44,600 nt of DNA, taken from NCBI GenBank assembly GCA_051860645.1, contig JBHYDO010000001.1:1-44600 (forward strand), in the 5' to 3' direction. Position numbers and translations under genes: made by a program. Under the pieces are notes generated by a model that saw nothing but the letters and a program-made list of their open reading frames with translations, had not been told where the DNA came from and did no database searches. Of the stretch, positions 247 to 8,187 are shown piece by piece. Position 1 is the first letter of the stretch. Each line of letters opens with the position of its first letter. Source of the stretch: Roseococcus sp. Its GTDB lineage: Bacteria; Pseudomonadota; Alphaproteobacteria; Acetobacterales; Acetobacteraceae.

Positions 247-987
247 TCAGCCGCCGACCAGGCGCCGGAACCCTTCGGAGACGCGCTTCACGATCTCAGG
301 CTCACGCGTGCGCCAGTAGCGCGGGTCGCGCATCATGCGGCGCAGTTCGCCCTCATCTTCGGCGGGCGGCGGCTCGACGTCGCGGGCCATCTGCGGCTCC
401 TTTCCCTGCATCATCCGTTCGAGCGCCATCACGCCCTCCTCGGTGGTGGAGAGCGCCTCGAACACCGCGTCGGGCAGGTTCGCGCGGCCCCAGGCGGAGA
501 GCTGGGACGCCACGCGGCGGAACCGCTCCGGCCCGCCATAGCGCGCGTGCAGCTTCTCCAGCTGGCGCTGCGCCTCGAACTGCTGCGCGGCCTCCGCGAT
601 CAGCGGCAGCAGGCGCTCGGCCGCCAGGTCATAGACCAGCTGCACCTGCTGGCGGGAGAAGCCGGCCTCGTAGAGCCGGCGGTTCACCTCGATGTCGGGC
701 GAAGTGAGCTCATGGCGGATCTCGATCTCGTACTGGTCCGGCGCCTCGGGGATGTCGTGCACCTCGCGCCAGCGCCGCACATCCTCGGGGTCCGCGTCCG
801 GGCCGGGCGGGGCGAGGCGCTGCGAGAGCCGGCGCTCCAGCTCGCGGTAGCTCTTCACCAGCGCGTCCACGCGCAGCTCGCCACGCTCCGCGTCCCAGAA
901 CTTTTCCGGCACGTCGCCGGGGCGGGCCTTGGTGTCGGCGGGGCCAGGGGGGGATGCGATGGCGGCGTCCAACAGGCTGTCTTGCAT
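247..987 (-). CDS. Phage capsid assembly/scaffolding protein (T7-like podovirus type)
   Basis: 246 aa directly downstream of the portal gene. Motifs 'RPxDVPEKFWD...LVKSYRELERRL' and C-terminal 'MMRDPRYW...V' are typical of podovirus scaffolds. SD GGAG upstream. Confidence 0.8.
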   Translation of the reverse strand: MQDSLLDAAIASPPGPADTKARPGDVPEKFWDAERGELRVDALVKSYRELERRLSQRLAPPGPDADPEDVRRWREVHDIPEAPDQYEIEIRHELTSPDIEVNRRLYEAGFSRQQVQLVYDLAAERLLPLIAEAAQQFEAQRQLEKLHARYGGPERFRRVASQLSAWGRANLPDAVFEALSTTEEGVMALERMMQGKEPQMARDVEPPPAEDEGELRRMMRDPRYWRTREPEIVKRVSEGFRRLVGG

Positions 988-994
988 GGCGGCT

Positions 995-2416
995 CTACTC
1001 CGTATGGGTCGGGATCAGGATTTCGGCGGGCGCGCCCAGCGTGCGGGCCAGCCAGCGCGCCGCGGCCGCGGCATCCACCTGGCCGCGCGCGTCCTCGCCC
1101 ATCTTCGAGACGGCCTCGAGGAAGAGCAGCGTGTTCGCCGCATCCGCGCGGCCCTGCACGCGGGCGAGCGGGCTTTCGTAGCGCAGCGCGACGCGGCCCT
1201 GGTCGAGCAGCACCGGCGGCACCTCGCCGCGCCGGGCCAGGATGGAGAGGCTGCGCGCCACCAGCGGCGTCAACAATTCCGATTGCAGGCGGCCATAGGT
1301 GGCGCCGAGCAGGCGCGAGGTCTCGGCGCTGCGTTCCAGCACTTCGGTCGCCGTCATCCGGGCGTCGCGCGGGGTGCCCAGGCGGTCCACCAGCAGGGCC
1401 TGGCGGATGCGCTGCCGCAGATCGTTCAGCATGAGCTGCGACACGTCGAAATTGCCGGGGGCGGCGAGCGGCGTAAGGCCCGCGCTTCCGGGCGCGCGCG
1501 GGATGATGGCGCCGGGCACGAGCTGCACGGTGGCGGGGTTCAGCACCCCGTCATCCTCCGCCTGCCAGATGCCGGTGACGGCGATGGAGGCATTCTTCAG
1601 AACCAGCTCCACCACGCGGTTCGCGGTGCGGATATCGGGCAGCGCCTTCACGACCGGGCCGCGGCCATAGACCTCGCCCGGCCCCTTCAGCCAGCGGAAG
1701 GCGATGTAGGGCGGGTCGGCGAAGCCGCCCTGCGCCAGCAGCGTGGGCTCCGTGCCCGTGCTCGCGTCGAGCACGGCGGCGTAGCGGTGGCCGAAGCGGT
1801 CGGGCCACACCGCCTCCACCACGCGCAGCTTCGCCGGTGCCTCGCTGTCCTTCACGCGCTCCAGCGCGGGCGGAAGTTCGGCGAAGGGGAAGCGCCGGCG
1901 GATCTCGGCCAGCGTCAGCGCGGTTTCGCGATAGACATTGTCCAGGCGTCCAGAGGGGCCTTCCTCCAGCACCGCGTGGCGCACCGGCACGGCGGTAAAC
2001 CGAAGGGCGGAGGCCTCGCCGGGCGGCGCTTCCTCCACCAGGATCACGCCGGTGCCGGTGATGACCAGGTCGAGGAAGGCCTGGTGCATCTCGACGGCGA
2101 AGTTGGAGCGGTCGAGGTGGGATTGCAGCACCTCCGCAGTGCCTTCCAGCGCATAGGCCGCGGCCTGCCCGGCCGGCGTGTCGGCCAGGTCACGCGCCGG
2201 GGCGAGGCCGAACCAGCGCGACCAGGGCGGCGTCAGCTCCGCCAGCAGCGAGGCGGCGAGCTGTTCGGCCGCGTCCGCCGCTGTCGCGTCGAACAGGGCG
2301 GTGGCCTCATGCGGCTTGGGCAGCACATGGGCGTAGGCGTCGGTCCAGATGGCCTCCAGCGTACGGCGCTGGTCCAGCGCGTGGCGCTGGCGGTCGAGGA
2401 TGTCGCGCGGGGTCAT
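995..2416 (-). CDS. Phage portal (head-to-tail connector) protein, T7 gp8/BPP-1-like
   Basis: Motifs 'LFDATA..AAEQLAASL...LTPPWSRWF', 'SNF..EMHQAFLDL..TGTG', 'RW.K.PGEVYGRGP' and 'MTATEV.ER..E..RLLG' are characteristic of the podoviral head-tail connector family. Start reassigned to ATG at 2416 (473 aa). Confidence 0.9.
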   Translation of the reverse strand: MTPRDILDRQRHALDQRRTLEAIWTDAYAHVLPKPHEATALFDATAADAAEQLAASLLAELTPPWSRWFGLAPARDLADTPAGQAAAYALEGTAEVLQSHLDRSNFAVEMHQAFLDLVITGTGVILVEEAPPGEASALRFTAVPVRHAVLEEGPSGRLDNVYRETALTLAEIRRRFPFAELPPALERVKDSEAPAKLRVVEAVWPDRFGHRYAAVLDASTGTEPTLLAQGGFADPPYIAFRWLKGPGEVYGRGPVVKALPDIRTANRVVELVLKNASIAVTGIWQAEDDGVLNPATVQLVPGAIIPRAPGSAGLTPLAAPGNFDVSQLMLNDLRQRIRQALLVDRLGTPRDARMTATEVLERSAETSRLLGATYGRLQSELLTPLVARSLSILARRGEVPPVLLDQGRVALRYESPLARVQGRADAANTLLFLEAVSKMGEDARGQVDAAAAARWLARTLGAPAEILIPTHTE

Positions 2417-2421
2417 GGCGG

Positions 2422-2652
2422 TCACTCGCCCAGCAGGGATTTGCGCGCGACGGGGAGTGGCAGCGGCGCCAGCACCCCGCGGGCAGAGGTGGCGATGGTG
2501 CCCGAAAGGCCCTGGCGGGACCGCTGCCGCGCCTCGATGCGGGCGGCCTCGGCGGTGCCGTCGGCCACGGCGGAGCTGACCGGCTCGGCGGCCGGCAGCG
2601 GCGTGGGCGCGGGCACCACGATGGGCTTCGGGGCGCGGAACAAGCCTCCCAT
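2422..2652 (-). CDS. Small putative virion protein preceding the portal
   Basis: 76 aa: MGGLF..PKP, a Pro/Ala-rich linker, 'G..GTIATS..G' and C-terminal 'RKSLLGE', the pattern of small pre-portal podovirus proteins. Strong SD (AGGAG); 5-nt gap to the portal start. Confidence 0.75.
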   Translation of the reverse strand: MGGLFRAPKPIVVPAPTPLPAAEPVSSAVADGTAEAARIEARQRSRQGLSGTIATSARGVLAPLPLPVARKSLLGE

Positions 2653-2706
2653 GCGCGCGGTTCTCCTGTTGGTTCTGGGGGTGGGCTGCCTCGTCGCCCG
2701 CCACGC

Positions 2707-2746
2707 AAAAAGGACGGCGGGCCAGCCCGGTGAGGGCGGCCCGCCG
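2707..2746 (-). terminator. Intrinsic terminator upstream of the head genes
   Basis: Perfect 9-bp outer stem CGGCGGGCC (2715-2723) / GGCCCGCCG (2738-2746) plus a 4-bp inner stem, followed on the minus strand by TCCTTTTT. Confidence 0.75.
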
Positions 2747-2797
2747 CAAGTTGCGGGGAGAGGAGGGATGCCAGCGGACGCAATTCGCCCGTTGACG
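2707..2797 (-). ncRNA. Candidate ~90-nt sRNA or attenuated leader RNA with a CU-rich anti-SD-like motif (suhB/MmgR-like layout)
   Basis: Bounded by a sigma70-like promoter and a terminator. Contains CAUCCCUCCUCUCCCCGCAACUU just before the terminator stem. The 5' end is estimated. Confidence 0.45.
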
Positions 2798-2802
2798 AGA
2801 CC

Positions 2803-2850
2803 TGTCTAGCGGGGGGAGGAGCCGCCAGTCAAGTATTTTTTCCTATTTTC
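2803..2850 (-). promoter_or_regulatory. Sigma70-type promoter with an adjacent TAGGAA operator-like motif
   Basis: Minus strand: AAATAGGAAAAAATAC-TTGACT-N16-GCTAGACA. An AT-rich patch within the 3' end of the 145-aa gene. Confidence 0.6.
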
Positions 2851-3243
2851 AGCGCGAGTGCTCAGCGCAATATACAACCCGTAGGGGGTCCAGGCGCGGG
2901 GCGCGTGCGGCCCCAGCACGGCCCGGCAGACCGAGACGCAGTTCAGCGGCAGCGGCCCGCGCGTGGGGCCGAGGGTGGTTTCATCGAGGGCAAATGGCCC
3001 CACCGGAACCATTCCGGCACGACGGTAGAAGGCCGGTGCGTCAAAACCGGACGGTACATCCAGGCGCGTCAGCAGCAGGCGCCCGGTCAGCGCCTCCAGC
3101 ACCAGCCAGCCCTGCTCGTCCTCGATCGCGGCGAAGCAGTGGCGAAAGCCCGGGCGCAGCCAGCGCTGCCAGGCGTGGTCCGCCCGGCCGCCGAAGACGA
3201 TCCAGGCGCGCTGCGTGGCCTGGCGCCGATGGCTCGGCCTCAT
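2806..3243 (-). CDS. Hypothetical protein, possible permuted papain-like (NlpC/P60-type) thiol peptidase/amidase
   Basis: 145 aa. His in 'GFRHCF' precedes Cys in 'LNCVSVC', with C-terminal 'TPYGLY..L', which is the permuted papain-fold order. ATGA overlap with the upstream gene. Confidence 0.55.
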   Translation of the reverse strand: MRPSHRRQATQRAWIVFGGRADHAWQRWLRPGFRHCFAAIEDEQGWLVLEALTGRLLLTRLDVPSGFDAPAFYRRAGMVPVGPFALDETTLGPTRGPLPLNCVSVCRAVLGPHAPRAWTPYGLYIALSTRAENRKKYLTGGSSPR

Positions 3244-3671
3244 GCGCGGAGGGGCGCGAAGGTCAGCACCTCCGCATCCGCCTCGATACGGGGCGCGCCG
3301 GCCACGATCCCTTTGACACGAAGTGGAAATTCAAGCCGCGACATGGCCTCCCGCCAGAGCCGGAAGTCGCCGCGCTCGGTGGCGTGGCGCGGGCTGGGGG
3401 GCAGGCCGCGCTCACCCCAGATGCGCATGATGCGGGCGTGACAGAGTTCGATGCGGCGCTGCCGGTAGAGCCGGTCCAGACACTTGATCACGTCGTCCGG
3501 ATCGCAGGGACGCAGCGCCACGCCCTTGCCGGCGGTGACCCTTGCGCCGTCCCGCCGGGCCGTCAGCGCCGCCATGGTCCAGAACCAGGCCTCCTCGGCG
3601 GAGCGGAAGGGCTCGGCCTTCGCGAGGCTCGCATAAATCGGCGAATGGCTGGGGCGGGGGGAGGAAGACAT
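3240..3671 (-). CDS. Hypothetical protein, candidate regulator of the phage-like cluster
   Basis: 143 aa from ATG 3671 (SD AAGGA). Basic and helical-looking: 'PFRSAEEAWFW', 'RPCDPDDV...LDRLYRQRRI', 'LWREAM.RL..PLR.KGIV'. First gene of the leftward operon. Confidence 0.7.
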   Translation of the reverse strand: MSSSPRPSHSPIYASLAKAEPFRSAEEAWFWTMAALTARRDGARVTAGKGVALRPCDPDDVIKCLDRLYRQRRIELCHARIMRIWGERGLPPSPRHATERGDFRLWREAMSRLEFPLRVKGIVAGAPRIEADAEVLTFAPLRA

Positions 3672-3734
3672 CGGCACATCCTTCTTCGGGGGCGCTTGGG
3701 GGGGAGGTGCATCGCCTGGCAGAGATGCATACCC

Positions 3735-3812
3735 AGGGTTGTGACTCATCTTTCCGGCGAAAAGCAAGATTTTCCTATTGCATCATGACCGCCGACCTAA
3801 CATCTTCCTGCC
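3735..3812. promoter_or_regulatory. Divergent promoter region with repeated TTCC(T) half-sites
   Basis: GCAA-gatt-TTCCTA (3764-3777) and CTAA-catc-TTCCTG (3797-3810). On the minus strand, ATAGGAAAATC abuts a TTGCTT -35-like box. Confidence 0.5.
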
Positions 3813-3813
3813 C

Positions 3814-4467
3814 ATGCGACACGATGACATCTGGCGGGCGCTCGATTCGCTGGCCGCCGAGAACGGGCTCTCGCCCTCGGGACTCGCGCGTCGCGCAGGG
3901 CTCGACCCGACGGCGTTCAATCCCTCCAAGCGGGTGGGCCCCGACGGGCGCGCGCGCTGGCCCTCCACGGAGAGCATCGCAAAGGTGCTGGCCGCGACCG
4001 GGGCAGGAATAGAGGCCTTTTCCACCCTGGTCTCTGGCAGCTCCACCCTGCCCAACCTGTCGCGCGGGGGGCGCGGGCTGGTGCGCCGCGTGCCGCTGAT
4101 CGGCCTCGCGCAGGCGGGCAGCGACGGGTATTTTGACGATGGCGGCTTTCCGGTCGGCGGCAGCTGGGACGAGATCAGCCTGCCCGAGATCGGCGATCCG
4201 AATGCCTATGCCTTGGAGATTTCAGGCGATTCCATGTCGCCGGTGTTCCGCGACGGCGATGTTGTCATCGTCTCGCCCGCCGCCCCCATCCGCCGGGGTG
4301 ACCGCGTGGTGCTGCGCACCCGCCGGGGCGAGGTGATGGCGAAGGAGCTTCGTCGGCAAAGCGCCAAGCGCGTGGAGGTGGCGAGCCTCAACCCGGCCCA
4401 CCCAGACTACAGCTTCGACCTGCAGGACGTGGCCTGGATGCACCGCATTCTCTGGAGCAGCCAGTAG
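3814..4467 (+). CDS. LexA/CI-like HTH repressor with a peptidase S24 domain
   Basis: N-terminal HTH 'IWRALD.LA..NGLSPSGLARRAGLDPTAFN.SKR...RWPSTESIAKVL'; Ala-Gly site 'AQAG'; catalytic Ser in 'GDSM' and Lys in 'MAKEL'. Start reassigned to ATG 3814. Confidence 0.9.
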   Translation: MRHDDIWRALDSLAAENGLSPSGLARRAGLDPTAFNPSKRVGPDGRARWPSTESIAKVLAATGAGIEAFSTLVSGSSTLPNLSRGGRGLVRRVPLIGLAQAGSDGYFDDGGFPVGGSWDEISLPEIGDPNAYALEISGDSMSPVFRDGDVVIVSPAAPIRRGDRVVLRTRRGEVMAKELRRQSAKRVEVASLNPAHPDYSFDLQDVAWMHRILWSSQ

Positions 4468-4473
4468 GCTGCC

Positions 4474-6387
4474 TTAGGCGGCCTGCACGGCATCGAGGTC
4501 GCGCTGGGCGTCGCAGGCCAGGTAGCGGCCGGGGCGCCTGGCATCCACCAGGGTCTGCAGGCCGGTGTCGGCGTAGATGCGCAGATGCTCGGGGCCGACA
4601 TCCACGAAGGCAGGGCGGGCGCCATGGCGCTCGCACAGGTCGCGGAAGCGCCAGATGGCGGAGATGGCGTCCCGCTCCTCGCCCGCCGGGTCGCCATGCG
4701 CAATCCAGACGCGGCCATGGCGGCTGAAGGCGAAGCCGGCGCGCTCCGTCTCGCCCCACAGCACGGCGTCGGCCGTGGCGGGCAGGCGGGCGCCCAGGGC
4801 GGCCAGGCGTTGCCTTGCTTCGATGGTGAAGGGCAGCGCCTCGATCCGCGCAGGACGCAGCAATTGCACCGCGCCGGCCAGCAGCAGCACGGCCGTGATG
4901 CCCACGGTGAAGCGCAGCTGGGGCGTGGCGTCGCCCATCAGCACGATCTCCCACCAGGTCTCACCTTGCACTTGGCCCGCATTGGCCAGCAGGGCGAGGG
5001 TGAGGCCGCAGATGGAGGCCGCCGCCAGCGGCAGCAGGATCTCATTCGACAGCGGTTCGCGCCGCAGCCGGCTGCCCCGGTAGAAGGCGGGCCGCATGGT
5101 GGCGAGCAGCGCCGCCACCACCAGGAAGACGCCCCAGGTCCACCAGGCTTCCTCGCGCAGCCAGCCGATGGCGGCGCCGTTCAGCAGCAGGAACAGCGCG
5201 CCCCACCACGCGATGGCCAGCCGCCGCGCCAGCCCGAAGGCCATGACCACCAGCAGGGAGCCCACAATGGAGGCGGCGAATTGCGACGCCAGCGCCGCCT
5301 CATACCCCGCCCATTGCTTGAGCACGGTGACCGACAGCGGCAGCCCGCCCAGAAAGATCAGCAGCGCGCCGCCGATGGCGACGAGGCCGGCCAGTGCGGG
5401 CACCTCCAGCGGCATGGCGCCGCGGCCCAGCGCGCCGAAGCGCGTCAGCAGGTCGCTGCGCTGCGTCACCTCGAAGCCGGCGAAGAGTGCGCCCGAGATG
5501 AACAGCGGCACGATGTAGTAGTAGAGGCGGAACACCAGCAGCGCGCCCACGACCTCGGCCGCGCCCATGTAGGGGGCAAGGCCCAGCAGGATGGCACCGT
5601 CGAACACGCCAAGCCCGCCCGGGACATGCGCGGCGATGCCCGCCGCATAGGCCGCGAGGTAGATGCCCACGAAATGCAGGAAGGTGAGGCCGGGTGCCGC
5701 GGGCAGCAGCACGAAGAAGATCGAGGCCGTCACCGCCACGTCCACCGTGGCGAGCGTGGTCTGCACCAGCGCCATCCGCACGCCCGGCAATTCCACCACA
5801 TGGCCGAAGACACGGATGGTGCGGCGGAAGCGGCTGAGCAGCACATAGCCCAGCACGATCGTGAAGAGCGGCACGGACATGAGTTGCAGCGCCCAGCGTG
5901 GCAGGTGGTCGCCCGCCCAGGGCAGCACCTCCGGCTCGAACAGCAGCACCATCCCGCCCAGCGCCATGCCGCCCAGCCCGAAGGTGAGCGAGGTGAAGCC
6001 GATGATCTTGCCGATCTCGACGGTGGAATAGCCCCAGGCCGAATACAGCCGGTAGCGCACTGCAGCCCCGGACACAGCCGCGAAGCCGATGTTGTGCGCC
6101 AGCGAATAGCCGCAGAAGGAGGCCAGCAGCGCCCGCGGCCAGGACGAAGGGCGCCCCGCATAGCGGGCGCCCAGCCAGTCGTAGATGGCCAGCACGCTGT
6201 AGGCCAGCACCGTCAGCGCCGCCGCCAGCAGCAGGCCGGAGGTGGGAAGTTCCGCCAGCGCCTGGCGCACATCGGCCATGGAGAGGTTGCGGAATTCCCG
6301 CTGCACCACCCAGATGGCGCCGACCAGCAGCGCCAGTCCGAAGACGGTGGCACCATGCCGCCGGACGAAGGGCCAGAGGGTCTTCAT
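4474..6387 (-). CDS. MprF-like lysylphosphatidylglycerol synthase/flippase membrane protein with a short C-terminal domain
   Basis: Multi-TM N-terminus with 'SGAAVRYRLYS', 'HVPGGLGVFD' and 'LVFRLYYYIVPL'. The C-terminal domain begins ('WIAHGDPAG') but the protein ends at 637 aa. Confidence 0.8.
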   Translation of the reverse strand: MKTLWPFVRRHGATVFGLALLVGAIWVVQREFRNLSMADVRQALAELPTSGLLLAAALTVLAYSVLAIYDWLGARYAGRPSSWPRALLASFCGYSLAHNIGFAAVSGAAVRYRLYSAWGYSTVEIGKIIGFTSLTFGLGGMALGGMVLLFEPEVLPWAGDHLPRWALQLMSVPLFTIVLGYVLLSRFRRTIRVFGHVVELPGVRMALVQTTLATVDVAVTASIFFVLLPAAPGLTFLHFVGIYLAAYAAGIAAHVPGGLGVFDGAILLGLAPYMGAAEVVGALLVFRLYYYIVPLFISGALFAGFEVTQRSDLLTRFGALGRGAMPLEVPALAGLVAIGGALLIFLGGLPLSVTVLKQWAGYEAALASQFAASIVGSLLVVMAFGLARRLAIAWWGALFLLLNGAAIGWLREEAWWTWGVFLVVAALLATMRPAFYRGSRLRREPLSNEILLPLAAASICGLTLALLANAGQVQGETWWEIVLMGDATPQLRFTVGITAVLLLAGAVQLLRPARIEALPFTIEARQRLAALGARLPATADAVLWGETERAGFAFSRHGRVWIAHGDPAGEERDAISAIWRFRDLCERHGARPAFVDVGPEHLRIYADTGLQTLVDARRPGRYLACDAQRDLDAVQAA

Positions 6388-6397
6388 GGCGCGCGTC

Positions 6398-8020
6398 TCA
6401 AGCGGGCGCGCTCTCCCGCGCCAGTGCGGCCTCGATCATGGCGCAGGCCTCGTCCACCCCCATGATGGCGACGGTGCTGCCGAAGCGCGGGCCTTCGCTC
6501 TTGCCCAGCAGCACCTCGTAGAGGGCCTGGAACCAGGCGCGGCCCACGCCGAGCGAGCCGTCCTTCTTGTTCACCACCGCGAAGGGCTCGCGGCGGCCGG
6601 CGTCATAGACGGCGTTCTGGATGGCGGCCTCGCGCTCCGGGCCCGGCGGCAGGGCGGCGAATTCCGGCGCGCGTTCGCGCAGCAGCCGTACCAGTTCGCG
6701 CATCGCCGCGGCTTCCTCGGGCGTGGCGGGGCGGAAGCTGCGCTCGGGCGCGATCCAATCGCGCCAATAGGCGCAGGCGTTGTGCACCAGCCGGTCCAGC
6801 ATGGGCTCATGCTCGGGCGCGGCATCGGGGTAGTATTTGCGGATGAAGGCCCAGAGCCGCGCGGGGTCATCGGTGTTGGCGATGCCGGCCAGGTTCAGCA
6901 GCGTGGCGTAGGAGATGGGCGGCAGCTTTTCGTTGGGCGCCACGCCGCCATGGATGTGCCAGGCGGGGTTGGCGGCGTCGGGGGCCGTGCGCAGCTTCTC
7001 GACCCCTGCCATCCAGTCATCCACCGCGCGCGGGATCACGCCCTTGTGGAGGCGCTTCGCACTCCCGGGCGTGGCGAACATGAAGAAGGCGAGGCTCTCG
7101 GGCGGGCCGTATTCGAGCCATTGCTCGATGGTGAGGCCGTTGCCCTTGCTCTTGCTGATCTTTTGGCCGTGCTCGTCGTTGAACAGCTCATAGGTGAAGG
7201 TGACGGGCGGCTCGCCGCCCAGCACGCGGCAGATGGCGGAACTCAGCCGGACGCTGTCGATCAGGTCCTTGCCGGACATCTCGTAGTCCACGCCCAGCGC
7301 ATACCAGCGCAGCGCCCAGTCGGCCTTCCACTGCGCCTTGCAGGCGCCGCGGGTGACGGGCGTCTCGAAGCGCTCGCCGCTGTCGGGGTCGGTCCAAATG
7401 ATGGTGCCCGCCTCGGGCCGCGTCTCGTCCATGGGCACTTGCATCACGATGCCGCTGCGCGGATGGATGGGCAGGAAGGGCGAGTAGGTGGCCCGGCGCT
7501 CCGGGCCCAGGGTGGGCAGGATGACGGCCCGCACCTCCTCATGCAGGGCCAGCATGCGCAGCAGGGCCGCGTCGAAGGTGCCGTCCGCGTAGTAGTCGGT
7601 GGAGGAGGCGAACTCGTAGTCGAAGCCGAAGGCATCGAGGAAGGCCCGCAGCCGCGCATTGTTGTGGGCGCCGAAGCTCGGGTGGGTGCCGAAGGGGTCG
7701 GGGATGCGCGTCAGCGGCTGGCCGATGTGCCGCGCCAGCATCTCCTTGTTGGGCACGTTGTCCGGCACCTTGCGCAGCCCGTCCATGTCGTCGCTGAACG
7801 CCAGCAGGCGGGTGGGCTGGCCGGTCATGGCGGTGAAGGCGCGGCGCACCCAGGTGGTGCGCGCCACCTCGCCGAAGGTGCCGATATGCGGCAGGCCAGA
7901 GGGGCCATAGCCGGTCTGCAGCAGCGCCTTCGCCTTCCCCGAGGCCGCCAGCCTATCGGCGAGCTTCGCCGCCTCCTCGAAGGGCCAGGCGCGGACGGAA
8001 CGGAGGGCAGGGTCGGGCAT
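6398..8020 (-). CDS. lysS: Lysine--tRNA ligase, class I
   Basis: 'TGYGPSGLPHIGTFGEV' (HIGH), 'KISKSKGN' (KMSKS), 'YEMSGKDL' and 'GPRFG'. Start reassigned to ATG 8020. Confidence 0.95.
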   Translation of the reverse strand: MPDPALRSVRAWPFEEAAKLADRLAASGKAKALLQTGYGPSGLPHIGTFGEVARTTWVRRAFTAMTGQPTRLLAFSDDMDGLRKVPDNVPNKEMLARHIGQPLTRIPDPFGTHPSFGAHNNARLRAFLDAFGFDYEFASSTDYYADGTFDAALLRMLALHEEVRAVILPTLGPERRATYSPFLPIHPRSGIVMQVPMDETRPEAGTIIWTDPDSGERFETPVTRGACKAQWKADWALRWYALGVDYEMSGKDLIDSVRLSSAICRVLGGEPPVTFTYELFNDEHGQKISKSKGNGLTIEQWLEYGPPESLAFFMFATPGSAKRLHKGVIPRAVDDWMAGVEKLRTAPDAANPAWHIHGGVAPNEKLPPISYATLLNLAGIANTDDPARLWAFIRKYYPDAAPEHEPMLDRLVHNACAYWRDWIAPERSFRPATPEEAAAMRELVRLLRERAPEFAALPPGPEREAAIQNAVYDAGRREPFAVVNKKDGSLGVGRAWFQALYEVLLGKSEGPRFGSTVAIMGVDEACAMIEAALARESAPA

Positions 8021-8187
8021 GGGTGTTGGGATGGCAGGGGGCGGGCCTGGGGTCAATGTGCCGTGGGCGGCGTTTGCACAATCCCGCGCCACCATTGCCA
8101 AGAAGGGGCGCATCGGTGGAATGCAGGCCCTGGATGCCCCGATGGCGCCCCCTGGCGCGCGACGGCGCGGGGGCTGAAACAGGGCGG

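Follow-up and report, generated by a model that had tools for sequence, protein, structure and literature searches.

We analysed a 44,600-nt stretch of Roseococcus sp. DNA (Acetobacteraceae; assembly GCA_051860645.1, contig JBHYDO010000001.1, positions 1 to 44,600), hereafter the window, whose left end carries podovirus-type head genes beside a divergent repressor gene (Table 1). An earlier note on this DNA had proposed that these genes belong to a domesticated, host-controlled gene transfer agent (GTA). In the genome under study (G000), the window lies on contig C1, the gene cluster continues on contig C14, and a satellite locus is found on contig C23. A check of open reading frames (ORFs) recovered all six genes named in the note at the same positions. 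ORFs, Pfam and PHROGs together confirmed intact genes for a small virion protein, a portal and a scaffold, two genes for hypothetical proteins (hyp1 and hyp2) and a divergent S24 repressor gene. The stop codons of the repressor (4465-4467) and of the mprF-like gene (4474-4476) are 6 nt apart, as described before, with lysS further on. The product of the mprF-like gene (4474-6387, 637 aa) matches only ~620 of the 841 positions of the MprF model and has lost most of the C-terminal transferase domain. Equally in line with the note, no integrase, replication, recombination or terminase gene was found between the repressor and the head genes of the window. The host-like GC content and codon usage that it had claimed hold for the portal and scaffold genes (73rd and 68th percentile of codon score among 3530 genes) but not in codon usage for the repressor, hyp1 and hyp2, which score in the lowest 5%.

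Table 1 Features at the left end of the window (positions in nt; strand given where assigned)
Feature	Position	Strand	Remarks
Scaffold-capsid spacer, interrupted by contig end	1-246		short GC-rich repeats
Capsid scaffold, T7-type, 246 aa	247-987	-	PF05396 E 6e-13; dN/dS 0.09-0.27
Portal, T7/BPP-1-type, 473 aa	995-2416	-	PF12236 E 2e-122
Small virion protein, 76 aa	2422-2652	-	phrog_831 E 1e-6; kept ahead of portal in relatives
Terminator-like GC hairpin (2716-2745) and U tract, late leader	2705-2745	-	fold
Conserved 16-nt element directly downstream of late promoter	2779-2794	-	common to C23 satellite
Predicted late promoter	2801-2846	-	operator 2832-2846; TTGAC -35 box 2828-2832; -10 box near 2803-2808
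hyp2, 145 aa, predicted permuted papain-like hydrolase	2806-3243	-	fold matches, conserved Cys/His
hyp1, 143 aa, predicted Q/AlpA-like late activator or antiterminator	3240-3671	-	model fold match
Predicted RogA-type operator, shared repressor/early promoter region	3764-3778	-	one mismatch to GGAA-N4-TTCC
Weaker operator-like site, repressor/early promoter region	3796-3811		
RogA-orthologous CI/LexA-like S24 repressor, 217 aa	3814-4467	+	PF00717 E 3e-21; phrog_4
Host flank: mprF-like gene and class I lysS	4474-8032	-	

Base 1 of the window is the start of contig C1, and this contig holds no sequence further left. The capsid and tail genes expected beyond this end were found at positions 1-9000 of C14, where the operon resumes, together with an endolysin-like gene. 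The join between C1 and C14 is taken from gene order in relatives; the gap (~200 nt absent) was bridged by none of the sequencing runs examined, and the C14 proteins are matched at 72-97% identity by the cluster proteins of a complete relative. In order, C14 encodes the capsid (PF19821), an adaptor, a nozzle, a gp14-like protein, a pectate-lyase-like spike, the small and large terminase subunits (TerS and TerL), a holin-like protein of one helix and an endolysin-like cell-wall hydrolase; DUF952, EamA, pyrD and HAD, which are host genes, come next. The terminase, which the note had placed elsewhere in the genome, therefore has both subunits inside the cluster. TerL (phrog_38) retains the Walker A/B motifs and the nuclease aspartates. 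TerS (~90-140 aa) belongs to no Pfam family in the genus copies, and a small terminase without a DNA-binding domain has been described as a GTA feature (PMC11841831). From repressor to hydrolase the set measures ~13 kb, and its position is fixed between lysS and DUF952-pyrD. An integrase or replication module, which the note had considered possible further left, was found neither within the 13-kb set nor between the host flanks, in G000 or in relatives.

The spacer between scaffold and capsid is 279 nt long in the complete genome G004. In the window, positions 1-110 contain short GC-rich repeats with hairpin potential, longer than in G004, which probably caused the assembly break. The same spacer carries tandem two-gene arrays in some families (L051:7785-19975, L070:1807-12083, L052:7565-9211), with peptidoglycan-binding and Sel1 genes repeated six times or DUF6973 and a 350-390 aa gene repeated five times; these resemble toxin-immunity arrays but are located within the late operon. 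After TerL, on the opposite strand, lies a conserved gene for 73 aa without a family (G000:C14:7885-8106, L061).

The window repressor is, by its sequence, an orthologue of Caulobacter RogA, a repressor of 213 aa that is LexA-like but devoid of catalytic residues and recognises GGAA-N4-TTCC at gafYZ (Gozzi 2022, PMC9632790). The rogA gene of Caulobacter vibrioides DSM 9893 was fetched by a published primer (PMC9632790); it encodes 213 aa, and the second primer site is present. Its product is 48% identical to the window repressor, which is its sole match in G000 (E 8e-58). The two proteins are single-copy best matches with the same termini, and both face lysS, a neighbour that the repressor has in other families too. 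To our knowledge, RogA is the only known direct repressor of the Caulobacter GTA activators. In its S24 domain, the window repressor retains the Ala-Gly site together with Ser and Lys.

Orthologues of the repressor were present in 103 of 401 genomes of the class (of which G054 enters as a tally row only) and in 44 of the 53 genomes with a close portal, defined as 51 genomes with E up to 3e-100 plus two with split genes. Twenty genomes were picked for presence of the repressor without a close portal. At 17 of these empty sites, pyrD lies on the side of the repressor promoter, and at 12 of the 20, lysS lies on the opposite side. In two of the 20, a gene of the cluster persists in the interval from repressor to pyrD (E 1e-34 and 2e-30), which indicates that the empty site arises by deletion at least sometimes. 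The Ser, Lys and Ala-Gly motifs are retained in 34/42 cluster repressors and 13/20 empty-site repressors, and RogA sits among both groups in a weakly supported tree. Beside the repressor of one empty site, a homologue of the 73-aa gene that follows TerL persists (L177:6459-6674).

Sites of the RogA operator type are present at both promoters of the cluster, which are thus predicted targets of the repressor. In the spacers between repressor and hyp1, a site with at most one mismatch was found in 25 of 39 cases (2.5 in shuffled sequence), mostly at a constant distance from the repressor start; around the stop codon of hyp2 the count was 13 of 36 (2.8 shuffled). The late operator of the window has two mismatches and touches the TTGAC box in a layout conserved in relatives, and it is the top-scoring operator site of G000 for a matrix trained on these loci. 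Downstream, a leader hairpin with U tract was present in 14 of 28 homologous leaders (2.95 shuffled; 7 on the opposite strand), at a threshold chosen by the analyst.

A second type of site links the locus to the host. Using the alphaproteobacterial LexA box consensus (PMC8565304), we found an exact box in 14/39 repressor-hyp1 spacers (0.19 shuffled). It was absent from the promoters of the window, from its three closest relatives and upstream of recA in G000. Among ten congeners tested, the six with lexA have the box and the four without lexA lack it; lexA was not found in the four-genome clade of G000, G003, G004 and G018, one of which is complete. The joint loss of box and gene is confined to one clade and counts as one event. 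Judged from these predicted sites, it ties the locus to a host regulon, and in the four genomes the RogA-like protein may now be the only RecA-cleavable repressor left. The host-type regulation put forward in the note is supported at this level by RogA orthology, conserved operator-like sites and the LexA box of relatives.

Neither hyp1 nor hyp2 belongs to a Pfam or PHROGs family. The structural model of hyp1 (predicted local distance difference test score 87) has phage Q (Z 6.2, root-mean-square deviation 4.1, 91 residues aligned) and AlpA (Z 5.7) as its two best folds, followed by sigma region 4, and a weak Atlas lead points to PF06530 (0.79). Homologues with 46-49% identity come after the primase in two true prophages. 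Considering these fold matches, the leader hairpin and the post-primase place in true prophages, hyp1 is best read as a late antiterminator. An identity with GafZ was rejected, as hyp1 has no Pfam match to DUF6456; elsewhere in G000 this family gave only marginal matches (best E 2e-5, at the cut-off; E 1e-43 in Caulobacter). For hyp2, Foldseek returned no match in the PDB or among viral models. Its three best folds were TseH (Z 7.8), YiiX (Z 6.5) and 3kw0 (Z 5.7), and among 34 homologues Cys102 is invariant and His35 nearly so; hyp2 is predicted to be a permuted papain-like hydrolase of the NlpC/P60, YiiX type.

The 16-nt element behind the late promoter has exact matches in G000 only at 2779-2794 and at C23:8535-8550 (none for a reversed-pattern control). 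The satellite operon on C23 (G000:C23:4591-8660, L254) has the layout of the late promoter and encodes a capsid-linked k12-like protein with a C-terminal extension, a 782-aa pectate-lyase-like spike, and phage-like proteins of 104 and 124 aa. The capsid-linked gene belongs to the main cluster in other families, and satellite and promoter are conserved in G004, G008 and G015, three of the four complete relatives checked. The idea that the system is split across loci therefore stands for the second spike and the capsid-linked gene but not for the terminase, which is within the main cluster. Another set of genes has a similar upstream region: five genomes each carry 1-8 copies of a ~185-aa gene whose only domain is DUF4096 (IS5 N-terminal; G000:C164:4618-5187 and C257:2060-2611; L255, L256, L284-L295). 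In most of 12 copies inspected, the start is directly preceded by a TTGA box and a site resembling the RogA operator, as judged by eye without a control.

The same site and gene order of the cluster recur across many families. Within the genus, the portal was matched in 21 of 24 congeners, 20 of them with a single copy at 69-93% identity, and TerL in 23 of 24 genomes including G000. Capsid homologues with a named source belong to Rubritepida, Roseococcus, Belnapia, Siccirubricoccus, Roseomonas and allies, which places the host among the Roseomonas-like Acetobacteraceae. Class-wide, 105 of 401 genomes gave a portal match, 53 of them counted as close. From 41 loci outside the genus, picked by portal score and covering 20 kb each, we recovered scaffold (34), hyp2 (31), repressor (30, two of them distant or fragmentary), hyp1 (26), capsid (25) and TerL (24); as the kit is split in several lineages, these counts are lower bounds.

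To describe descent, we built a structural tree from portal, capsid, adaptor, nozzle and TerL of the 29 genomes with all five (G100, without rpoB, was left out). It has 14 of 26 splits in common with the rpoB tree (shuffled mean 0.2, maximum 4), with a patristic r of 0.93. In a set of 16 genomes, the structural tree agrees with rpoB at 8/13 splits, and the tree of host pyrD agrees with rpoB at 6/13; the cluster tracks rpoB as well as a host neighbour does, as expected from the vertical inheritance that the note had postulated. Purifying selection, which it had likewise anticipated, is evident from the ratio of nonsynonymous to synonymous substitution rates (dN/dS; Nei-Gojobori, six species pairs, five for hyp2 and pyrD), which is mostly 0.05-0.3: capsid 0.05-0.09, portal 0.11-0.17, TerL 0.07-0.16, spike 0.15-0.30, hyp1 0.12-0.23, hyp2 0.12-0.27, with adaptor and nozzle also within 0.05-0.30. 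The repressor is lowest (0.03-0.05) and hydrolase (0.27-0.44) and TerS (0.27-0.69) are highest; host pyrD gave 0.08-0.23, and the dS of the cluster is similar to that of host neighbours. We are highly confident that the cluster is an ancient, vertically inherited and host-kept podovirus-type locus, that is, a domesticated one.

The podovirus head lineage suggested in the note is borne out by the PF12236 portal, the PF05396 scaffold and the closest structures. The Legionella phage LME-1 (PMC12407071; PDB 9EG4, 9EFK) provides the nearest solved capsid (E 6e-28), portal (9EFK, E 4e-34) and nozzle (E 1e-27), and the gene order of LME-1 and of T7/BPP-1-like podophages is the same as in the cluster. 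LME-1 is a mobile prophage with internal virion proteins, whereas the cluster is fixed and keeps only the gp14-like one. The k12 protein was considered as an LME-1-type decoration protein and gave no sequence match; the decoration label derives from gene position alone. In cultured phages, portal identity reached at most 37% (apart from one record), TerL identity at most 32%, and the repressor matched by its C-terminal domain only; hyp1 had no match in cultured phages. Plasmids gave matches of at most 32% identity. The one portal exception is MT838907.1, a 5-kb unannotated 'Bacteriophage sp.' record with a portal 50% identical to that of the window; this record may represent a bacterial cluster copy.

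Closer at hand are temperate podo-prophages of the same genus, which both genomes concerned carry in addition to the cluster (L238/L296/L298 in G003; L239/L297/L299 in G012). They share hyp1, hyp2, the small protein, portal, scaffold, capsid, adaptor, nozzle, gp14-like protein and spike in similar order, and they differ in having an integrase, primases, a terminase of another type and three virion proteins of large size. The structural proteins of the cluster are only 26-37% identical to their prophage counterparts, and in the portal tree the prophages are separated from the chromosomal clade (support 0.99). In one family (f18), we observed a second compact and conserved podovirus head-tail-lysozyme cluster with host-like flanks, a portal from a different clade and no large ejection proteins (L234, L236 and L237 in G367, G041 and G282), which is possibly a separate domestication.

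Among described GTAs, the closest circuit is that of Caulobacter crescentus (PMC9632790, PMC11150451), which has the orthologous repressor beside lysS, the same operator type, and a repressor that gates a predicted antiterminator and a leader terminator; its antiterminator is GafZ (PMC11150451). Unlike in Caulobacter, the repressor here adjoins its predicted targets and keeps the catalytic Ser/Lys that RogA is without, the structural genes are T7-like rather than HK97/siphovirus-like, and hyp1 has no match to DUF6456/GafZ. With the RcGTA family (Rhodogtaviriformidae; PMC9662315, PMC5721377, PMC7296036), the cluster shares a head-tail set of ~13-15 kb, vertical descent, purifying selection and a satellite spike locus, and in cluster copies of some families also a PF11351 holin. 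The HK97-type portal PF04860 of RcGTA was found in none of the five genomes searched (the Caulobacter control was positive), and the megatron GTA_TIM PF13547 had no match in G000. In agreement with the note, the cluster falls outside the RcGTA family, from which it differs in portal, megatron and activator. Of 35 genomes with the RcGTA marker PF13547, none had a close portal and 19 had the repressor; 4.6 portals would be expected if the two were independent, which kin are not. Rhodospirillales and Micavibrio were reported to have only small RcGTA-like clusters (Shakya 2017, PMC5721377), and George 2022 (PMC9254644) deals with RcGTA homologues, not with the present cluster.

More distant parallels come from other hosts and were drawn by description, not by sequence. 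FpGTA of Faecalibacterium was called podovirus-like (PMC12946183), BaGTA of Bartonella (PMC2697382) has a lambda-like portal and terminase and a run-off replication origin, where the portal here is T7-like, and a third case is Dd1 of Desulfovibrio (PMC11841831). All three resemble the present cluster in being independently domesticated DNA-packaging particles. The Dd1 particle is short-tailed. A literature search, which did not cover most subscription papers and bioRxiv supplements, returned no description of the cluster; as to the note's suggestion of a possibly undescribed GTA class, the cluster itself is likely undescribed, but a podovirus-like GTA has a precedent in FpGTA.

With moderate confidence, we read the cluster as an undescribed and independently evolved GTA. 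The RogA-type repressor would hold both promoters shut, the one ahead of hyp1 and the one ahead of the head genes, and in relatives host LexA would form a second lock, lost in G000 along with lexA. As Ala-Gly, Ser and Lys are retained, stress may lead to RecA-stimulated self-cleavage of the repressor and thus to production of hyp1. This protein would let transcription pass through the leader hairpin, so that late and satellite operons are read and T7-like particles are built. Given that the locus cannot excise or replicate, TerS and TerL would pack fragments of the chromosome. After lysis of the cell, the spikes would bind the capsule of a recipient. Without the three large ejection proteins, DNA might be delivered to the periplasm only and then imported by ComEC/DprA, as for RcGTA, which ejects its DNA only into the periplasm (PMC7296036); ComEC and DprA are encoded in G000, both being common proteins. 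Packaging of chromosome fragments and periplasmic delivery are the weakest steps of this scheme.

Several observations weigh against this reading. The RNA run examined yielded short low-depth pieces of relatives only. Model members of the T7-like terminase family, to which TerL belongs, pack their own genome specifically. LME-1 packs its own DNA only, in a 60-nm, T=7 head (PMC12407071), and a head of this size could hold the whole cluster. With the queries used, whose positive control matched in G003 and G012, searches of G000 and the other cluster genomes covered did not recover the three large ejection proteins, save for short transglycosylase-domain matches, which makes DNA delivery problematic. 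On the regulatory side, a strict promoter/terminator scan of the window did not call the leader terminator and found nothing, the fold scores of hyp1 are under the level that the tool rates reliable, and Foldseek gave no match for hyp1 in the PDB or among viral models. The mutual exclusion of close portal and RcGTA marker follows clades and is not an independent test.

As for descent, the structural tree disagrees with rpoB in three pairs of well-supported splits, at deep nodes that all lie outside the genus, and the capsid was found in only 33 of 151 family genomes, the best copies being at least 68% identical. Portal and TerL were not found in G022 in the genus search. Decay does occur in some relatives: the cluster has internal deletions in G013, G014 and G024, and the portal is split by inserted elements in G069 and in the viral-database contigs L115 and L142. 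The interruptions include a 17-kb insert in G069 (L247/L248) and an integrase beside a truncated portal in L142:5663-8198, and this suggests that the portal gene is an integration hot spot for other elements.

Part of this evidence would fit a host-owned particle with another job, namely a device for lysis under stress, which would set free heads that bear depolymerase spikes and are either empty or filled with DNA; these might remodel capsule or biofilm, act as decoys or attack the outer membrane of competitors. The ejection proteins not found in the genomes searched, the two pectate-lyase-like spikes, one of them on the co-regulated satellite, and the lineages that retain only parts of the kit near the portal are all consistent with such a device. 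We nevertheless consider it unlikely, as the intact TerL motifs and purifying selection argue for DNA packaging, and layout and repressor fit known GTA logic.

Less probable still is a resident helper or defence kit, whose capsid and terminase would come into play only when a related phage or mobile element enters the cell; they would then provide heads, sabotage them or package satellites. Such a kit would account for the temperate podophages of the genus, which encode a hyp1 homologue (46-49%) together with the missing ejection proteins, and for the elements that integrate into the portal gene. However, switch, lysis genes and spikes are all part of the cluster itself, identity between its structural proteins and those of the genus prophages is only 26-37%, and no such prophage was found in most carriers searched. 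An ordinary or decaying prophage with early genes elsewhere or recently lost, as the divergent CI-type repressor, the phage gene order and the deletions in some relatives might suggest, is very improbable and already largely ruled out by the constant site and order across families, a tree that tracks rpoB, dN/dS far below 1, host codon style, and an integrase and primase not found between the host flanks.

Returning to the GTA reading, we tentatively offer a wider scenario that goes well beyond it and is rather doubtful as a whole. The cluster could be a second, independently tamed GTA of the class Alphaproteobacteria, built on a T7-like podovirus that settled between rogA and pyrD in an early ancestor, with RogA as its old prophage repressor. 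Where the kit was deleted and remnants stayed behind at the empty site, RogA might then have been re-wired to control a later siphovirus-type GTA, and delivery would proceed without a T7-type ejectosome.

A GTA of the kind proposed here would, with or without this wider scenario, fill a gap in the distribution of GTAs, in that Rhodospirillales-type lineages without a full RcGTA cluster would carry a different domesticated particle. It would also offer an origin for RogA, and a self-cleavable version of the repressor in which the inducing signal is testable. Finally, many 12-13 kb 'viral' contigs in IMG/VR, from which 80 loci were fetched, would be host genes.

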